57,763 nt of DNA. Source: Candidatus Moraniibacteriota bacterium (GTDB lineage: Bacteria; Patescibacteriota; Minisyncoccia; Moranbacterales; UBA1568). The stretch spans positions 1 to 57,763 of the forward strand of contig JBPOHW010000014.1 in NCBI GenBank assembly GCA_052035095.1. Direction: 5' to 3'. Shown one piece after another: positions 16,828-23,545 of the stretch; within the stretch, counting starts at the first letter, position 1, and each line of letters opens with the position of its first letter. Below the pieces are notes generated by a model. That model had not been told where the DNA came from. It saw nothing but the letters and a program-made list of their open reading frames with translations, and ran no database searches. Position numbers and translations under genes: made by a program.

Positions 16828-17511
16828 CTAGATTTCCTTCGCCCCATATTCCTTCCAGTACGCTTCAAATCGAGGGAGAAAAAGTTTGTATTTTGGATCT
16901 TCGCGAATATACTCCATAAGTTCGCGCATCCCCACAATACTCTGCACAAAGACCCCTTTCTGTTCAGAAAGCTCCTTCGCCACCGAAAAGCCGGAAGTGC
17001 CTCGATCCTCACGATCAAACCCAGCAATCACGCCCCTCACATACGCGCCGCGCTCACGAGCCACATCAATAGTCATCCCTATCGTCGTACCACTGGAGAT
17101 TACACCAGTAACTATGACAACATGAGATCCTATTTCAAGAGGCGCCCACAGAAATCGTTCCTTATTCCCAGAAAAGCTTCCTTCCTTTCGGAATGAAGAG
17201 AATCGAACATCTTTTACTGCGTATTCTTGAGACAAAACTGTGGCAGTGGCAAACGCGAGAATTTCTCCAGTATCGGGAGGTCCTAAAAGAATCGGGAATG
17301 CCTCTTCAAGGTTGTCATTATTAGGAGTATCACCCAAAAGAAACGCCGCCGCATAACACCTCCCGATGACAAAGAGCGCCTCCACATTTGGAATTGCACT
17401 CATATTAATCAAGTACGGACTTTTTCGACCCTTCAAGCTAAACCCCCCATCAACATTAAGCACATTGAAATCCAAGCAGGTCTGAACAAACATCTCCTGA
17501 TATTTTTGCAT
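16828..17511 (-). CDS. Orotate phosphoribosyltransferase-like protein with degenerate PRPP loop
   Basis: PyrE-like FSLKGRKSPY, SFRKE and VIAGFDRED. The DD of the PRPP motif is replaced by TG. Confidence 0.75.
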   Translation of the reverse strand: MQKYQEMFVQTCLDFNVLNVDGGFSLKGRKSPYLINMSAIPNVEALFVIGRCYAAAFLLGDTPNNDNLEEAFPILLGPPDTGEILAFATATVLSQEYAVKDVRFSSFRKEGSFSGNKERFLWAPLEIGSHVVIVTGVISSGTTIGMTIDVARERGAYVRGVIAGFDREDRGTSGFSVAKELSEQKGVFVQSIVGMRELMEYIREDPKYKLFLPRFEAYWKEYGAKEI

Positions 17512-17607
17512 CACATTTCTCCTTTCAGTTTGAAAACAACTCGTTTCGCACACTGGCGAAACTCGAAGCCACTGTACTCGAATTGGCGGGCGCATGTCAA
17601 ATCACTC

Positions 17608-17658
17608 AAAAAAAAAGAAGGCCTCTGTCAGTTAACGCTTCAACTGATGAGCACCTTC
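17608..17658 (-). terminator. Intrinsic terminator
   Basis: GAAGG...CCTTC long hairpin followed by a T9 tract. Confidence 0.65.
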
Positions 17659-17667
17659 GGAACAGAA

Positions 17668-18399
17668 CTATCGTGTTTTCATAGCGTTGCGCAACCTCGC
17701 CCATTCGTTTTTAGGTTTCCAAACGACATTATCATCCTTGATCGCGTCCGCTACCAGTAGATCATCCTGCCGATATTGCGGAGTCTCCCTTTCGACAACA
17801 GCCACAATAGGCACGCCGATTCCCTCAAAGAAGAATTCCTCCTGAAACGGAAAGGAACGGTTGATAGCACACTGGATAGCGATCACATTCGCGCCGGCAT
17901 TCTTGATGATCTGGCAGAGCTTCCCCGAAGTTGAGAGGTTATTGACAAGCTCCTCCCCAATAAGGACGCGATCCCCTGCGTTTATCGCCCCTTCATAACG
18001 CCCGAGGAAAATTCGATTACCTTCCTTCTCTGCGAAAACATGGCGACAACCGAGAATTGCCGCCACTTCCTGCGAAAATTTCACTCCCGCCCATGGCGCA
18101 CCGAGGATAATCGTTGGAGAAACACCGCGAGAATCCAGCGTCTCAACCATCATATTCGCGAACAACGTAAGCACGGCAGGCCACATATCAGCTTTGGAAA
18201 AATTAAAGTATGTGAGTCCGACATACTTCTTCTTTTTCCCATCAATGTCCGCGTAATCGCCGGTATATCCAACAATCGGACCGATTGGCATTCCATCATT
18301 CCCAAGGGGACACGTATAGTATCCTTCGCAATTTATCAATGTTTGCAGAGGGTCGCCTGAAACAATAAGATGCGACCCATCACTTGAATATACGTTCAT
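17668..18399 (-). CDS. Type I phosphoribosyltransferase (PyrE-like, divergent)
   Basis: GAPWAG loop and PRPP motif VLIGEELVNNLST. Confidence 0.8.
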   Translation of the reverse strand: MNVYSSDGSHLIVSGDPLQTLINCEGYYTCPLGNDGMPIGPIVGYTGDYADIDGKKKKYVGLTYFNFSKADMWPAVLTLFANMMVETLDSRGVSPTIILGAPWAGVKFSQEVAAILGCRHVFAEKEGNRIFLGRYEGAINAGDRVLIGEELVNNLSTSGKLCQIIKNAGANVIAIQCAINRSFPFQEEFFFEGIGVPIVAVVERETPQYRQDDLLVADAIKDDNVVWKPKNEWARLRNAMKTR

Positions 18400-18468
18400 T
18401 TCAATATCCTCTTTCCGACTTGAAGAGAAGAAGAGAGCGTTTTTCAGGCGCCCTCTGCGATCACTGCA

Positions 18469-19197
18469 TCACGCAACAATTTGCCGCGTGACACGCCGTG
18501 CGGCTTCCCGCATTTTTTCTGGGGTATCCTGTTTATAGATGGCGGAACCGACGATAGCATGCCACCTGCCTCCCGCTACGCGTCCGCATTCGGAAATATC
18601 CCCTCCCTGACTGATAAACCCCGGAGCATAGAGAACGAATTCTTCATCGCCAAGCTCTTCCATAAGCCATCCCCGAATCCGCAGAACCCACTCGAGCTTC
18701 GTTCCCGGAACGACAAAGTCCCGAACGCCGAGATCGCACGCGAGACGAAAGATTCGTTCAACAGCCTCATCGGCTATATAGCCGCCCTCGCTCACCAAGA
18801 ACTGCGGATGAGTCATGACGCCGCCGACTACTACCCTAAGACCCCTATTGAAACATGCTTCCGTCCATACTTCCTGTGTTTTCGGTCCGGCAAAGGGAAA
18901 AAGAATCACGGCGTCCACGCGACTCCATGCCAACGCTTCTGCAAACGGCGCTCCCATTTCGGGAATATCTGTCGCTCCTTTCTGGGGATCATAGATAACG
19001 GGAAAACCCGCACCCATCACATCTTTGACCGCTGTAACAGCACAATCCAAGTCACATAAACCCAGAAGGGACCCGAGCTTGAAAGCTCCTATGCCGGGAA
19101 CATCGCGGACACTCCCTACAAGTTCGTCGAGAGTATTCAGATCAATAACGTCCGCCGCAACGACAACACTTTTCTCTGCTTCAATGATTCTTTTCAT
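18469..19197 (-). CDS. pyrF: Orotidine 5'-phosphate decarboxylase (divergent type)
   Basis: Motifs VVAADV, AFKLG, IYDPQKGATDIP, PGFISQGG and IVGSAIY. Confidence 0.85.
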   Translation of the reverse strand: MKRIIEAEKSVVVAADVIDLNTLDELVGSVRDVPGIGAFKLGSLLGLCDLDCAVTAVKDVMGAGFPVIYDPQKGATDIPEMGAPFAEALAWSRVDAVILFPFAGPKTQEVWTEACFNRGLRVVVGGVMTHPQFLVSEGGYIADEAVERIFRLACDLGVRDFVVPGTKLEWVLRIRGWLMEELGDEEFVLYAPGFISQGGDISECGRVAGGRWHAIVGSAIYKQDTPEKMREAARRVTRQIVA

Positions 19198-19305
19198 GCT
19201 TACTCTCCGCTTCATGTTGGTAAAGATCCGCTCCGAAATTTTCCGAAGCTCGGCACTATCCTCTCGTATTTTGAAGCCATTGTCAATTCCGATTTCCAAA
19301 AAGAA

Positions 19306-19356
19306 CTACACCACAAAATTCACCAGTCGATCCGGAACGAAAATGACTTTTCGAAC
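19306..19356 (-). repeat. Orphan duplicate of the last 16 codons plus stop of leuS
   Basis: Encodes VRKVIFVPDRLVNFVV*, identical in amino acids to 20203-20253. Confidence 0.92.
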
Positions 19357-19498
19357 CGTTTTGTTGGTAATGAACCCACTCCGGACATTTCGGAAGCCTA
19401 TCAATATCCATTGCAATCCTACCTGTTTCGATTCTCGATTGTCAATCCGAAAAAGAAAAACATCACCCACATACGAGAGTGATGCCAGAAAAACATTT

Positions 19499-20176
19499 TT
19501 ATACATCGCCTTCAAAGGATTCGTGAAACGCCCTCAACTCATCGCACCGAAGCTTCCGGAGTATACCCTTATACATTGATCGTATCCCTTCATTGGAGAG
19601 CTTTTTCCGAATCAGCTCTCCGTCCTTCCTTCTTCTCAGAACAAAAAATCCCTCTTGAACTATATCATGAATATCCCAATCTTTCTCGAGGAGGGTATGG
19701 AGAAGCTGACGCTCGTCTCGAGAGAGGCCAACTTCCACCGCGCGATCCCAAATAGCCCTTCGAAGAGAAGTGCCGTCGTATTCCCGAATCGTCCGACACG
19801 TAGCATCGTCTTGTTCCGCTATGGTATCGAGACGCGTTCGATCCGAATCCTCACACTCCGGGGCATCAAGCGAAACCGGAAGACTCACTCGACTGAAGAA
19901 AAGCACTTCCCGAACCTTCCCCGGACGAAGCTTTCGCGATCGAACCTTCCCTTTCAAAAGAAGGAGAAGGAGCCACACCTCTTCACGAGGAAGACTCTCG
20001 AGCCACTCCCTGGCAAAATTCGCCGACTCACTGTCTCCCGCAGGTCCCCGATTGAAGTATGCCGTACAAACAATGTTCACGATGAGTTCAATCAGCAACA
20101 TGTCTCGAGACATTCGTCGCAATTCCCGATCACCAATCGGAAAACCTCTCTTGACCGCACTCGCCTTACTTGTCAT
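19499..20176 (-). CDS. Sigma-70 region 3.2/4-like protein lacking a recognisable region 2
   Basis: PVSLDAPECEDSDRTRLDTI (region 3.2), LSRDERQLL and LSNEGIRSMYKGILRKLR (region 4). GGAGG RBS present. Confidence 0.65.
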   Translation of the reverse strand: MTSKASAVKRGFPIGDRELRRMSRDMLLIELIVNIVCTAYFNRGPAGDSESANFAREWLESLPREEVWLLLLLLKGKVRSRKLRPGKVREVLFFSRVSLPVSLDAPECEDSDRTRLDTIAEQDDATCRTIREYDGTSLRRAIWDRAVEVGLSRDERQLLHTLLEKDWDIHDIVQEGFFVLRRRKDGELIRKKLSNEGIRSMYKGILRKLRCDELRAFHESFEGDV

Positions 20177-20202
20177 AAAGAACCCTCCGAGACCAAAATC
20201 AA

Positions 20203-22692
20203 TCAAACGACGAAGTTCACCAATCGATCCGGAACAAATATCACCTTCCGAACTACTGCATTAGCAAGGTACTTCTTCACCGACTCTTCTTCCTGCGCCA
20301 TTCGCTCAACATCTTCTTGCGACGAACCCGCGAGCACGCGAAGCCGTGCGCGGAGCTTGCCGTTGACCTGTATCACCACTTCCGCCATTTCTTCTTTGAG
20401 AAATTTGGAATTGGCTTTGGGCCAACGTTCCAGCATAATGGATGCTTTGTTTCCTTGCAAACTCCACAATTCCTCGGCAATATGCGGCGCAAAGGGCGAA
20501 AGGAGAATGAGTAGAGTTTCAAAATCTTCTCTCGCAACCGATTCCGCCTTTTCCATTTCATTTACAAAAATCATGAGCGCCGAAATCGCCGTATTGAATC
20601 GCATCCCCTCGATATCTTCGCTTACTTTTTTAATGGTCTTATGCAAGAGGGCATTCAGCTTTCCGCTCTCAGCTTTCGGGTTTCGACCGCTGACGACTGA
20701 CTGCTGATCGCTGATTGCCGGCGCAAGCCTCCATACCTTCTCCAAAAACCGCCGCATCCCGACAACACCGTCCGTATTCCACGACACGCTCTGCGAAAAC
20801 GGTCCCAGAAACATTTCGTAGAGCCGGAGCGCGTCCGCGCCGAAGCGCCGAACCATATCGTCCGGATTCACCACATTGCCCCAGCGCTTCGACATCTTGC
20901 GTCCGTCGGACGCCATGATAAGCCCCACATGGGCAAGTCGCTTGAAGGGCTCCTTCGTCGAGACAACACTGATATCATAGAGAAACTTGTGCCAAAATCG
21001 CGCGTAGAGCAAATGCCGCGTCGCATGCTCCGCGCCACCCACATAGAGATCAACCGGCATCCATTCCTTCTCTTTCTTGGGATTAATGAGTTTTTTGGAA
21101 TTGTTTGGATCAATATACCGGAGATAATACCAGCTCGATCCCGCCCACTGCGGCATCGTATTGTTCTCGCGCCGCGCCGCGCCGCCACAGACGGGACATT
21201 TCGTCTTCACCCACTTTTCAATGCTTGCCAAAGGCGACTCCCCCGTCCCCGTCGGCTCATACGACTTCACTTCCGGCAACTTCAAGGGCAACTCCTTCTC
21301 CGGCACCGGCACCCATCCACACGATTCACATTTCATGAGCGGGATCGGTTCGCCCCAATATCTCTGCCGCGAAAACACCCAGTCCCGCAACTTGTAATTC
21401 ACTTGTTTCTTGCCGAGCTTCCTCTTCATCAACCACGCTGTCATTTTCTCCCGCGCCTCTTGGGATGAAAGCCCCGTAAATTCTCCGGAATTTACCAAAA
21501 TACCATCCTCAACAAATGCCTCCATGTTTTCCGCCTGATTCTTTATTCCTGATTCTTCATTCACCCCAACCGACTGCCGCACTGACACATCATACTTCTT
21601 CGCAAATGCAAAGTCTCGTTCATCATGCGCCGGCACTGCCATCACCGCGCCCGTCCCATAATTCCCCAGTACATAATCCGCCACATAGATTGGCACTGAT
21701 TCTCCGGTAAACGGATTCACCGCCTCGACGCCCTCCAACCTCACGCCGGTCTTTTCCCTGCTCGCATCATTTCTCTCCTGCTCCGTCTTTTTCTTCGTTG
21801 ACTCAATGTATTTCCTCACCTCCTCGGAATTGGAAATTGAAAATTGATCATTGAAAATTAACTGGTGTTCCGGCGCCACCACCACATAGGTGCACCCAAA
21901 AATCGTATCCACTCTCGTAGTGAAGACTTCGATAAAATCTTGAGAATTTTGAATTTGAGAATTATTTGGAAATTGGTTATTGGAAATTGGAAATTTTATC
22001 AATGTTCCCTCCGATCGCCCGATCCAATTCCGCTGTTGTTCCTTGATAGACTCACTCCAGTCGAGTTGCTCCGCATCGAGATCATGGAGCAATCGATCGG
22101 CATAGGCGGTCATCCGGATCACCCACTGGCGGAGAGGTTTCTTCTCGATTTCGCTTCCGCACACTTCGCATTTTCCATCCTCTAAGTCTTCGTTGGCAAG
22201 ACCCGTCTGACATGTGGGGCACCAATTGATCGGTTCCTCGGATTCATACACCAGTCCCTTTTTGAAAAGCTGCAAAAATATCCATTGTGTCCATCGATAA
22301 TATTCGGGATCAGTCGTATTAATCTCACGATCCCAGTCGTAGGTAAAACCAAGATTTGAAAGTTGTTTCTTGAAGTTGGCAATATTTTTTCGGACAGAGA
22401 TTCTCGGGTGTGTCTTGCTCTTTATTGCAAAGCGTTCAGCCGGAAGACCAAAAGCATCCCATCCCATCGGGTGAAGCACACTATATCCTTCGAGTTGTTT
22501 CTTCCGCGCCACGACATCGGTTGCGATATAGCCCTTGGGATGCCCCACATGAAGCCCCGCCCCCGACGGGTATGGAAACATATCGAGCGCATAAAACTTT
22601 TTCGCCCGATCATACTGCTTATAGATTTTCTTCGTCTCCCACTCCTTCTGCCACTTCGGCTCTATTTTCTTCGGATCGTATTTCGCATGCAT
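20203..22692 (-). CDS. leuS: Leucine--tRNA ligase
   Basis: Motifs MFPYPSGAGLHVGH, GWDAFGLPAE, EVFTTRVDT, KMSKR and VIQVNGKLR. Confidence 0.98.
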   Translation of the reverse strand: MHAKYDPKKIEPKWQKEWETKKIYKQYDRAKKFYALDMFPYPSGAGLHVGHPKGYIATDVVARKKQLEGYSVLHPMGWDAFGLPAERFAIKSKTHPRISVRKNIANFKKQLSNLGFTYDWDREINTTDPEYYRWTQWIFLQLFKKGLVYESEEPINWCPTCQTGLANEDLEDGKCEVCGSEIEKKPLRQWVIRMTAYADRLLHDLDAEQLDWSESIKEQQRNWIGRSEGTLIKFPISNNQFPNNSQIQNSQDFIEVFTTRVDTIFGCTYVVVAPEHQLIFNDQFSISNSEEVRKYIESTKKKTEQERNDASREKTGVRLEGVEAVNPFTGESVPIYVADYVLGNYGTGAVMAVPAHDERDFAFAKKYDVSVRQSVGVNEESGIKNQAENMEAFVEDGILVNSGEFTGLSSQEAREKMTAWLMKRKLGKKQVNYKLRDWVFSRQRYWGEPIPLMKCESCGWVPVPEKELPLKLPEVKSYEPTGTGESPLASIEKWVKTKCPVCGGAARRENNTMPQWAGSSWYYLRYIDPNNSKKLINPKKEKEWMPVDLYVGGAEHATRHLLYARFWHKFLYDISVVSTKEPFKRLAHVGLIMASDGRKMSKRWGNVVNPDDMVRRFGADALRLYEMFLGPFSQSVSWNTDGVVGMRRFLEKVWRLAPAISDQQSVVSGRNPKAESGKLNALLHKTIKKVSEDIEGMRFNTAISALMIFVNEMEKAESVAREDFETLLILLSPFAPHIAEELWSLQGNKASIMLERWPKANSKFLKEEMAEVVIQVNGKLRARLRVLAGSSQEDVERMAQEEESVKKYLANAVVRKVIFVPDRLVNFVV

Positions 22693-22842
22693 ACTCCATC
22701 AATTGAAAATTGAATCTTGATCATTGAAAATTTCTCTCTCCATCCTATCGCTTCAGAGAAAACTTTTCAATGTTGACAAAAAAAGAGAGACCATTGGCAG
22801 CTGGTCCCTCAAAAAGCTTTCCATTAACATTCGTACCTTTTT

Positions 22843-23085
22843 TCAAGTCAAAATAACCGGAAGAGGTGAGGGCGCATTTTCTGCGTTACGACTCCTCTCG
22901 GGCGCATACCATTTTTGAATACACGCATTCGAACAAAGGGCGGCCGGATAACCACATATAATCACGTTGACATAAGGGCCTTTAAAAAATCGGTTACACT
23001 GGGCACAGTGCATCCTATTTTCTCCGGAATCAAAAACCGACTGAATATCTACCGCAAACACATCTACACCCTCCATGAAAAACAA
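22843..23085 (-). CDS. Small zinc-finger-like protein (CxxC...CSxxC)
   Basis: HCAQC...LCSNAC motif. Start position is uncertain. Confidence 0.4.
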   Translation of the reverse strand: MFFMEGVDVFAVDIQSVFDSGENRMHCAQCNRFFKGPYVNVIICGYPAALCSNACIQKWYAPERSRNAENAPSPLPVILT

Positions 23086-23179
23086 CTACCCTCCTTCTAC
23101 TCCCAAAACAAGCAAAAGTCAAAAGTTTCGCAAAATAAAACGAGGTTGTGTTCCTACGGAAACACAACCCCTTGCAAAC

Positions 23180-23545
23180 CTATATTCCAAAAAGCTTGCC
23201 GAAAGCTTCTATCATCCTTTCGGCATCCTCCTGCCCATCGGGAAGCAAGAAGCAGCCCGGAAGCGTAAAGCCAAAAGCGTTGTCCGGATCTCCTGTGGCA
23301 ATACTGCAAGCTTTTTGAAAAGCTCCAGCTCCCTCAAGAATAATGCCAATAGCATCTTTCCCTACAAAACTATCCATGGAACCGTCAGGAAAAAGCGTCT
23401 TTGCCAGCTCGCGACTCACGCGAACTCTCCGCGCGAGCAACAAGCCAACTCCGCGTCCTTCGCAACCCGCAATGAAACGCCCAGCCGAAAGTGTCTCTCC
23501 CGCCTCTCCCGCGACGGCAAGAACAAATACCCACTCTTTTTCCAT
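23180..23545 (-). CDS. Degenerate nucleoside diphosphate kinase-like protein
   Basis: Colinear by-eye similarity to NDK over its length. The catalytic His is absent. Confidence 0.6.
   Translation of the reverse strand: MEKEWVFVLAVAGEAGETLSAGRFIAGCEGRGVGLLLARRVRVSRELAKTLFPDGSMDSFVGKDAIGIILEGAGAFQKACSIATGDPDNAFGFTLPGCFLLPDGQEDAERMIEAFGKLFGI

Follow-up and report, generated by a model that had tools for sequence, protein, structure and literature searches.

A minus-strand gene in the 57,763-nt contig JBPOHW010000014.1 of a Candidatus Moraniibacteriota bacterium (the window, meaning the whole of this stretch) encodes a protein of 225 residues. By profile comparison, residues ~83–215 of this protein are sigma-70-family sequence, running from the last region 3.1 helix through the region 3.2 finger and region 4. 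The residues before them form a helical domain in which no region 2, the part of sigma factors that opens the −10 element, could be detected. We tentatively favor, at somewhat less than even chances, that the protein is a sigma-derived factor that would bind RNA polymerase without canonical promoter opening. The gene and its parts are as follows.

19499..20176, minus strand: open reading frame (ORF) of the sigma-derived protein, 225 aa; P0002–P0007 and the copy in genome G002 align to it end to end
19931..20176, minus strand: N-terminal helical domain, aa 1–82, without detectable relative; helices predicted by AlphaFold2 (AF2) at 16–24, 26–41, 49–61 and 64–79
19805..19930, minus strand: aa 83–124, last region 3.1 helix (KVREVLFF) and region 3.2 finger (VSLDAP-ECED-SDRTRLD), from hhalign, Pfam and the family alignment
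19532..19774, minus strand: aa 135–215, sigma region 4 (4.1–4.2), a helix-turn-helix (HTH) domain
19598..19648, minus strand: aa 177–193, family-specific basic beta-hairpin FVLRRRKDGELIRKK replacing the HTH turn, from AF2 and the gap in hhalign
19547..19597, minus strand: aa 194–210, recognition helix SNEGIRSMYKGILRKLR, opposite TRERIRQIEAKALRKLR of RpoD region 4.2 in hhalign

Searched alone against Pfam, NCBIfam and PHROGs, the window protein has no match. The sigma homology was detected with a profile of eight family sequences (alignment A2: the window protein, P0002–P0007 and the G002 copy), which was compared by hhalign with 30 aligned RpoD proteins of the host's order. The two align over residues ~99–217 with an E-value of 3e-6 and a probability of 87–88%. 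Residues 80–125 and 140–225 taken alone against RpoD give P 0.0014 and 0.0016, respectively. In windowed hhalign the N-terminal limit of detectable sigma homology is residue ~83, and windows 1–95, 20–100 and 45–100 find nothing in RpoD. As a positive control in global hhalign, residues 83–106 score against the end of sigma-3 above 60 of 60 column shuffles.

Other searches arrive at the same part of the protein. In a database of 5.8 billion proteins, the A2 profile reaches the annotated sigma factors P0011–P0013 with E 3e-3 to 9e-3. Residues 81–211 of P0006 match PHROG_351 ‘RNA polymerase sigma factor’ with E 9e-9, P0003 and P0006 match NCBIfam RpoD_Cterm from model position 115–127 on, and P0006 matches sigma-32 as well. 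Positions 33–70 of Pfam Sigma70_r3 align weakly (E 0.2) and colinearly with aa 84–123 (19808–19927). Two other matches were discarded as chance: one of PF04542 inside the gene (aa 157–181, E 0.15), which falls within region 4, and titin, the sole match of a PDB sequence search with a two-sequence profile.

The sigma motifs are found in order. KVREVLFF-SRVSLP-VSLDAP-ECED-SDRTRLD is the counterpart of the 3.1 end and of the finger, whose motif is VSLDAPECEDSDRTRLD at aa 101–117; LRRAIWDRA...LSRDERQLL corresponds to region 4.1; and LSNEGIRSMYKGILRKLR at aa 193–210 corresponds to the recognition helix of region 4.2. The core of this helix is SNEGIRS in the window protein and SRERIR, SREDIR or SYERIR in its relatives. 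Few stretches of the family alignment are as well conserved as the finger block, in which S102, T114 and D117 are invariant. The protein thus has both marks of the sigma-70 family, the HTH domain of region 4 and a 3.2 finger/linker preceded by the last 3.1 helix. A first-pass annotation of this DNA had recognized the finger and the region 4 HTH and had read the RERIRQ helix as NEGIRS, and the profile matches and the helix alignment bear out both statements. It had assigned the homology to regions 3.2–4, which is right for the finger and region 4 and leaves out the last 3.1 helix, as the homology already starts at residue ~83.

The predicted structure agrees with this assignment. The AF2 model built from the eight-sequence alignment has a mean predicted local distance difference test score (pLDDT) of 66, while an earlier two-sequence model was unusable (pLDDT 52). 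The C-terminal domain of the eight-sequence model is confident (residues ~140–215, pLDDT 83–91) and superposes on sigma-4 of many holoenzyme structures with modest Z scores (4.4–5.7). In structure-based alignments to region 4 of E. coli and Vibrio sigma-70 the identity is up to 28%. When the whole model was searched against PDB with Foldseek, nothing was found at E ≤ 0.001. The basic hairpin, with strands 178–182 and 188–192 at a pLDDT of about 90, is an insertion relative to RpoD in hhalign. It is 14–17 aa long, and P0006 and P0007 have a shorter form. From its position in the model, it may make an additional contact to the DNA backbone.

The N-terminal residues differ from the rest in that profile searches return no sigma signal from them. 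None of the eight members has a Pfam, NCBIfam or PHROGs match above the curated cut-offs within residues 1–80, and sigma matches of these three kinds never begin before residue ~78 in any member. The sub-threshold family matches listed are to non-sigma families only (E 0.05–0.26, not placed along the protein). In global hhalign, residues 14–82 score 1.6 against RpoD sigma-2, 4.9 against extracytoplasmic-function (ECF) sigma-2 and 2.6 against sigma-3, scores that are equaled or surpassed by 48, 12 and 33 of 60 column shuffles, respectively. P is 0.14–0.17 when the N-terminal part is compared by local hhalign with RpoD and with 19 ECF-type sigma factors, and VIA-align with residues 12–99 yields generic helical matches only.

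Two sigma-like assignments within this domain were considered and dropped. A by-eye reading of LLIELIVNIVCTAY-FNRG as region 2.1 and VWLLLLLL as region 2.3 was not supported by the shuffle-controlled hhalign. Nor was a reading of residues 26–82 as regions 2.4–3.0; the initial hhalign run had extended over them, with a gain of no more than about 3 score units.

Sigma factors are ordinarily conserved best in region 2. As residues 14–82 lack a sigma-2 signal in proteins whose regions 3.2 and 4 can still be detected, the divergence is strongly non-uniform. We argue that canonical sigma-2 function has probably gone, since its signal is absent right beside a recognizable finger and region 4. The first-pass annotation had likewise seen no region 2. 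It had also called the N-terminus unrelated to sigma factors, which agrees with the lack of any profile relative and goes further than two other searches described below (a protein-language-model search in ESM-Atlas, score 0.89; Foldseek against BFVD, best E 1.3e-3) would permit.

What argues for a protein bound to RNA polymerase is the conserved finger. To our knowledge, the sigma finger block has no role outside core-polymerase binding. Thus its conservation favors a polymerase-bound protein, in which the finger would have its only use and would need a domain on each side of the RNA-exit channel.

The favored sigma-derived factor would be a ‘half sigma’ descended from a group 1–3 factor of the sigma-70 family, retaining the C-terminal helix of 3.1, the 3.2 finger and the region 4 HTH. 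Regions 1.2, 2 and 3.0 would have been replaced by, or have decayed into, an 80-residue helical domain unlike sigma-2. Region 4 would sit on the beta-flap of RNA polymerase and read a −35-like element, where the basic hairpin would add its backbone contact. The finger would thread the RNA-exit channel, as it does in sigma factors, and the N-terminal domain would take the place of sigma-3/sigma-2. Lacking a canonical sigma-2, the protein would not nucleate −10 melting by itself.

Two roles are conceivable for such a factor. It may be the half of a split sigma that reads −35, with its partner encoded at an unlinked site, or it may compete with sigma-A for binding at the flap and in the exit channel, thereby modulating transcription. 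The first-pass annotation had named a decoy, a flap competitor and a DNA-binding regulator as possible functions; a split-sigma subunit was not among them. A bolder version, which we consider unlikely, is a stand-alone 3.2–sigma-4 protein with a novel N-terminal domain that would occupy the finger and flap sites of the polymerase and act either as a gene-encoded competitor of the housekeeping sigma, a ‘sigma mimic’ brake on initiation, or as an initiator opening promoters in a manner unlike sigma-2.

Sigma factors are defined by the joint action of sigma-2, which opens −10, and sigma-4, which reads −35. Natural proteins having a finger and sigma-4 without a recognizable sigma-2 are few, the known ones being split-sigma subunits of phages, Tn916 and Bacillus. 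A single-gene version in a ~1-Mb genome with three ordinary sigma genes would be a simple test case for whether a lone finger–sigma-4 module competes, recruits or initiates.

Several observations weigh against the favored half-sigma factor. First, the window protein departs from the canonical residue at two of the four positions that contact −35 (R584 to N and R586 to G, E. coli numbering, hhalign register). Second, no partner gene is found in the insertion that carries the gene or beside the G002 copy. Third, in a PF04542 scan, region 2 is found only in the three full-length sigma genes of the genome, and no orphan sigma-2 protein is found. The missing partner is the main weakness of the split-sigma role, because known split sigmas have adjacent partner genes.

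The remaining contrary points concern the N-terminal domain. Its helical bundle (residues 16–99) is predicted with only moderate confidence (pLDDT 56–76), leaving its fold unsettled. In an ESM-Atlas feature search with residues 1–96, the named neighbors are Sigma70_r2 clusters, one of them viral, at a score of 0.89, which is below the 0.9 trust line of the tool and uncalibrated for parts of proteins. In Foldseek against BFVD, phage sigma factors come first, in whole-protein colinear alignments of 211–295 columns, with borderline E-values (1.3e-3 to 2.5e-2) and a template-modeling (TM) score of ~0.2. The first-pass annotation had proposed structure prediction as a check and a cryptic region 2 as a disproof. 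The prediction upholds a sigma fold for the C-terminal domain and leaves room for a cryptic, degenerate sigma-2 in the N-terminal one, to which we give a limited chance.

With the same limited chance, the protein may instead be a complete and very divergent alternative sigma factor, in which residues ~16–80 would be a degenerate sigma-2, the 3.1/3.2 segment would be a short linker, and the protein would direct the polymerase to promoters of its own unaided. At 225 aa, with a four-helix N-terminal domain, a linker and sigma-4, it has the outline of a compact sigma (phage-type, sigma-H-type or ECF-like). A conserved finger is expected of a true initiation factor, and the ESM-Atlas neighbors and top-ranked BFVD matches point the same way, as do SigB, sigma-S, SigL and SigK near the top in Foldseek against PDB (E 0.1–0.3). 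Moreover, in divergent sigma factors, T4 gp55 for one, region 2 is poorly visible by sequence.

On the other hand, the profile signal of the N-terminal domain is nil, with local P-values of 0.14–0.17 and global scores inside the shuffle nulls, and no curated sigma model reaches upstream of residue ~78. The Atlas score stays below 0.9, the Foldseek E-values are borderline with a TM score of 0.2, and the VIA-align matches of the domain are generic helical ones. In a colinear alignment, the loop between helices 2 and 3 is several residues shorter than that of ECF sigma-2. A complex prediction with residues 1–100 and a beta-prime clamp-helix fragment scored 0.25, where the mark is 0.32, and favors neither a complete sigma nor the half-sigma factor.

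It is rather improbable that the protein is a plain DNA-binding regulator of sigma descent, one that would use its HTH and hairpin on operators and its N-terminal domain for dimerization or ligand sensing while leaving the sigma sites of the polymerase unoccupied. The basic hairpin does resemble an added DNA contact, and the same genome has a non-sigma protein in which Sigma70_r4 is fused to HARE-HTH. However, the homology covers the end of 3.1 and the finger, which would be useless in a free DNA-binding protein and yet are among the best-conserved blocks, and GerE/LuxR is not among the Pfam matches of any member.

The HARE-HTH fusion protein is encoded on another contig of the genome (G000 contig C9, L015:1186–2496, plus strand). 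It has 437 aa, with Sigma70_r4 at aa 106–157 (E 2e-10) and HARE-HTH at aa 310–372 (E 7e-12), and lacks region 2. With it, the genome has a second and unrelated protein that uses a sigma-4 module without being a sigma factor.

The family to which the window protein belongs is very small and new, and its known kin are sigma-70 derivatives and split-sigma halves. An exhaustive hidden Markov model (HMM) search over 1.84 billion cluster representatives yielded, besides the two query sequences P0001 and P0002, five more members of full length (P0003–P0007) and fragments, and one more homologue is in the same-genus genome G002. Members are 27–47% identical to the window protein and come from about seven lineages, with intact ORFs of 213–227 aa and with a conserved hydrophobic core and motifs in both halves across lineages. 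Being intact in about seven lineages so diverged, the family is evidently under selection.

Within the GTDB family of the host, the gene is present in 2 of 107 genomes (the window genome, G000, and G002), in both directly after leuS. The host genome, rated 100% complete, consists of 17 contigs totaling 1.04 Mb, and the 107 genomes are about 0.7–1.4 Mb, sizes that fit a CPR/Patescibacteria-like bacterium. In tblastn against 50,697 phage records, neither the window protein nor P0006 has a match, so a phage origin, though possible, is unsupported.

That the gene is a functionless passenger, a decaying sigma-gene fragment moved by recombination beside leuS, is very improbable, as its rarity in the family genomes, its site in an apparent rearrangement hotspot behind leuS and aberrant metagenomic variants are outweighed by the intact ORFs with motifs conserved in both halves across diverged lineages, by its own ribosome-binding site (RBS) and terminator, and by the identical allele in sludge metagenomes of several studies and in an RNA library. 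Of the aberrant variants, P0008 (58 aa) is internally deleted and P0010 (126 aa) continues with unrelated sequence after residue ~73; either may be an assembly error or a copy in decay.

The ORF of the window protein is intact from the ATG at 20176 to the stop at 19499–19501. An RBS read from the sequence, GGAGGG at 20183..20188 (minus strand), lies 6 nt 5′ of the ATG, and the distance from the leuS TGA (20203–20205) to this ATG is 26 nt. A longer frame could start from TTG 20206 and would overlap the leuS stop. We take ATG 20176 as the start because the homologues open with MT(S/T)K... A terminator scan of the minus strand found none between the leuS stop and the gene (20176–20205), and found a terminator-like hairpin with a T-run 12 nt past the stop of the gene (19459..19486, minus strand). 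With an RBS after the leuS stop, no terminator-like site in between and a terminator behind it, the gene looks co-transcribed with leuS.

An RNA-library contig lies inside the gene (19919–20151), which means presence and is not proof of transcription. A second one, over the downstream pyrF-like gene, ends at 19386, just downstream of a promoter-like site, and is a weak hint. An Rfam scan of 18000–23500 gave no match.

The gene appears to be an accessory one that arrived in a ~0.9-kb segment carrying its own leuS 3′ end. The elements of the locus that bear on this are listed below.

20203..20253, minus strand: working leuS 3′ end, last 16 codons and TGA; upstream copy of a direct repeat, probably imported
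19306..19356, minus strand: relic of the former leuS 3′ end, 16 codons and TAG, encoding the identical 16 residues
19416..19445, minus strand: promoter-like site TTGACA-18-TAGGAT in the insertion, facing the pyrF-like operon, identified by consensus match only

Direct repeats at 19296–19356 and 20193–20253 are 897 nt apart, and the sigma-like ORF is the sole gene between the two leuS ends, just as the first-pass annotation had it. The insertion of ~0.9 kb comprises the new leuS end, the sigma-like gene, its terminator and the promoter-like site; the terminator-like hairpin directly precedes the promoter-like site (19416–19486, minus strand). Both leuS ends encode VRKVIFVPDRLVNFVV, with 10 synonymous and no non-synonymous differences, and stop with TGA in the working copy and TAG in the relic. 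Since all 10 differences are synonymous, the two evolved as real leuS ends in separate lineages before they were joined. This rules out a drifted target-site duplication as their source.

Compared with the nearest relative, G007, the relic is identical at 45 of 51 positions and the working end at 39 of 51. The relic lies ~110 nt from the likely start of the pyrF-like gene (MKRIIEAEK, near 19197), which is about the spacing between leuS and the pyrF-like gene in G006. As the relic is nearer to G007 and is spaced as in G006, it would be the ancestral leuS end, and the 0.9-kb segment the insert.

The simplest account of this arrangement would be that recombination anchored in leuS brought in the leuS end of a relative together with the gene behind it. 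Alternatively, an element may have integrated site-specifically and then lost its remaining parts. The insert has no recombinase, and nothing points to a self-mobile element. Because its 3′ part occurs only once in the genome, the insert is not a repeated mobile unit. The first-pass annotation had called the gene ‘cargo’, which suits an imported segment, given the all-synonymous differences, and overstates the case if a self-mobile element is meant. Sliding-window identity of leuS against G001, G007 and G002 gave no clear recombination breakpoint.

The locus was also sought in other data. The stretch 18900–20700, which includes conserved leuS sequence, is found in activated-sludge and wastewater metagenomes of 14 studies. 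Contigs from run X17, sludge/wastewater DNA of another study, bridge both insertion junctions with the same sequence, and this is the sole run so shown. An empty-site form is not seen among the metagenome contigs placed on the locus, and run X4 has only short pieces from other organisms. Searches of genomes, metagenomes and viral contigs found no relatives of the locus. If our account is correct, the locus shows how a regulator may be gained in a small genome, with a 0.9-kb segment arriving together with its own version of an essential gene's end and the former one staying behind as a dated scar.

What follows leuS varies among the genomes of the genus.

G004, G005, G006: pyrF-like gene
G001, G007: phosphoribosyltransferase (PRTase)
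G003: apparent two-ORF transposase, by eye
G002: sigma-like homologue 15 nt past the leuS stop, no relic; then a terminator and a PRTase gene

Thus the 3′ flank of leuS may be a rearrangement hotspot in the genus. The first-pass annotation had proposed comparing the gene neighborhoods of homologues. For the G002 copy, the one homologue so compared, the position directly after leuS is shared, and neither a partner gene alongside nor a second leuS-end relic behind it is found. In G003 (L083:728–1509), overlapping ORFs at 728–1174 and 1153–1509, by eye a frameshifted transposase of the insertion sequence (IS) type, occupy the same spot as the gene in G000 and G002. The pyrF-like gene and one of the two PRTase genes (window 16828–19299) are variably present in the genus, with a single PRTase in G001, G002 and G007.

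LeuS itself also varies. That of G002 (L009:3356–6316, plus strand) has 987 aa, compared with 829 aa in the window. Behind the editing domain it has an inserted NUDIX hydrolase domain (aa 433–527, PF00293, E 1.4e-8, above the gathering score). Long leuS frames (1001–1134 aa) occur in several other genomes of the genus.

Among known systems, the protein resembles group 1–3 sigma-70 factors (RpoD/SigA, sigma-32 and the SigB/F type) in the colinear order of the last 3.1 helix, the finger, 4.1 and 4.2. Its finger motif is of their form, V/I-S-L/M-D/E-x-P ... D-S/T-x-L-x-D, and its recognition helix ends like theirs (ILRKLR, ALRKLR-like). It differs from them in that regions 1.2, 2.1–2.4 and 3.0 are undetectable and an 80-aa helical domain stands instead, in the basic hairpin at the HTH turn, and in the two −35-contacting arginines changed in the window copy.

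Other sigma-like proteins fit less well. UPF0122/YlxM (PDB 1xsv, 1s7o) and LuxR/GerE domains lack the 3.1/3.2 segment and the N-terminal domain, and neither UPF0122 nor GerE/LuxR is among the Pfam matches of the family. For the GerE model there is no Pfam match at E up to 10 in the eight members, so the resemblance to LuxR/GerE is one of fold only. PhyR-type mimics, the anti-anti-sigma proteins of Alphaproteobacteria, are sigma-derived proteins that are no longer sigma factors, and consist of a sigma-2-like part, a sigma-4-like part and a receiver domain. The window protein shares the sigma descent with PhyR. Unlike PhyR, no member of the family has a Response_reg match, and the protein ends right after region 4.

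The closest described analogues are the sigma-4-bearing subunits of split sigmas, which have the −35- and flap-binding part without a competent −10-melting part. Documented split sigmas are B. subtilis SigO/YvrI–RsoA, T4 gp55/gp33, SPO1 gp33/gp34 and, as the latest case, Tn916 Sig7–Sig8, in which Sig7 resembles region 4 only and sits on mobile DNA (bioRxiv 10.64898/2026.10.01.756105; PMC10141391). The window protein likewise has sigma-4 without a recognizable −10-reading part, and its gene has no adjacent sigma-2-like partner gene, nor did the searches turn up an RsoA-like or sigma-2-only protein. Unlike split-sigma subunits (with Sig7, SigO and RsoA compared by description only), it comes as a single-gene insertion, keeps a canonical finger and has an N-terminal domain of its own. 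Like Tn916 Sig7, it is encoded on what appears to be imported DNA.
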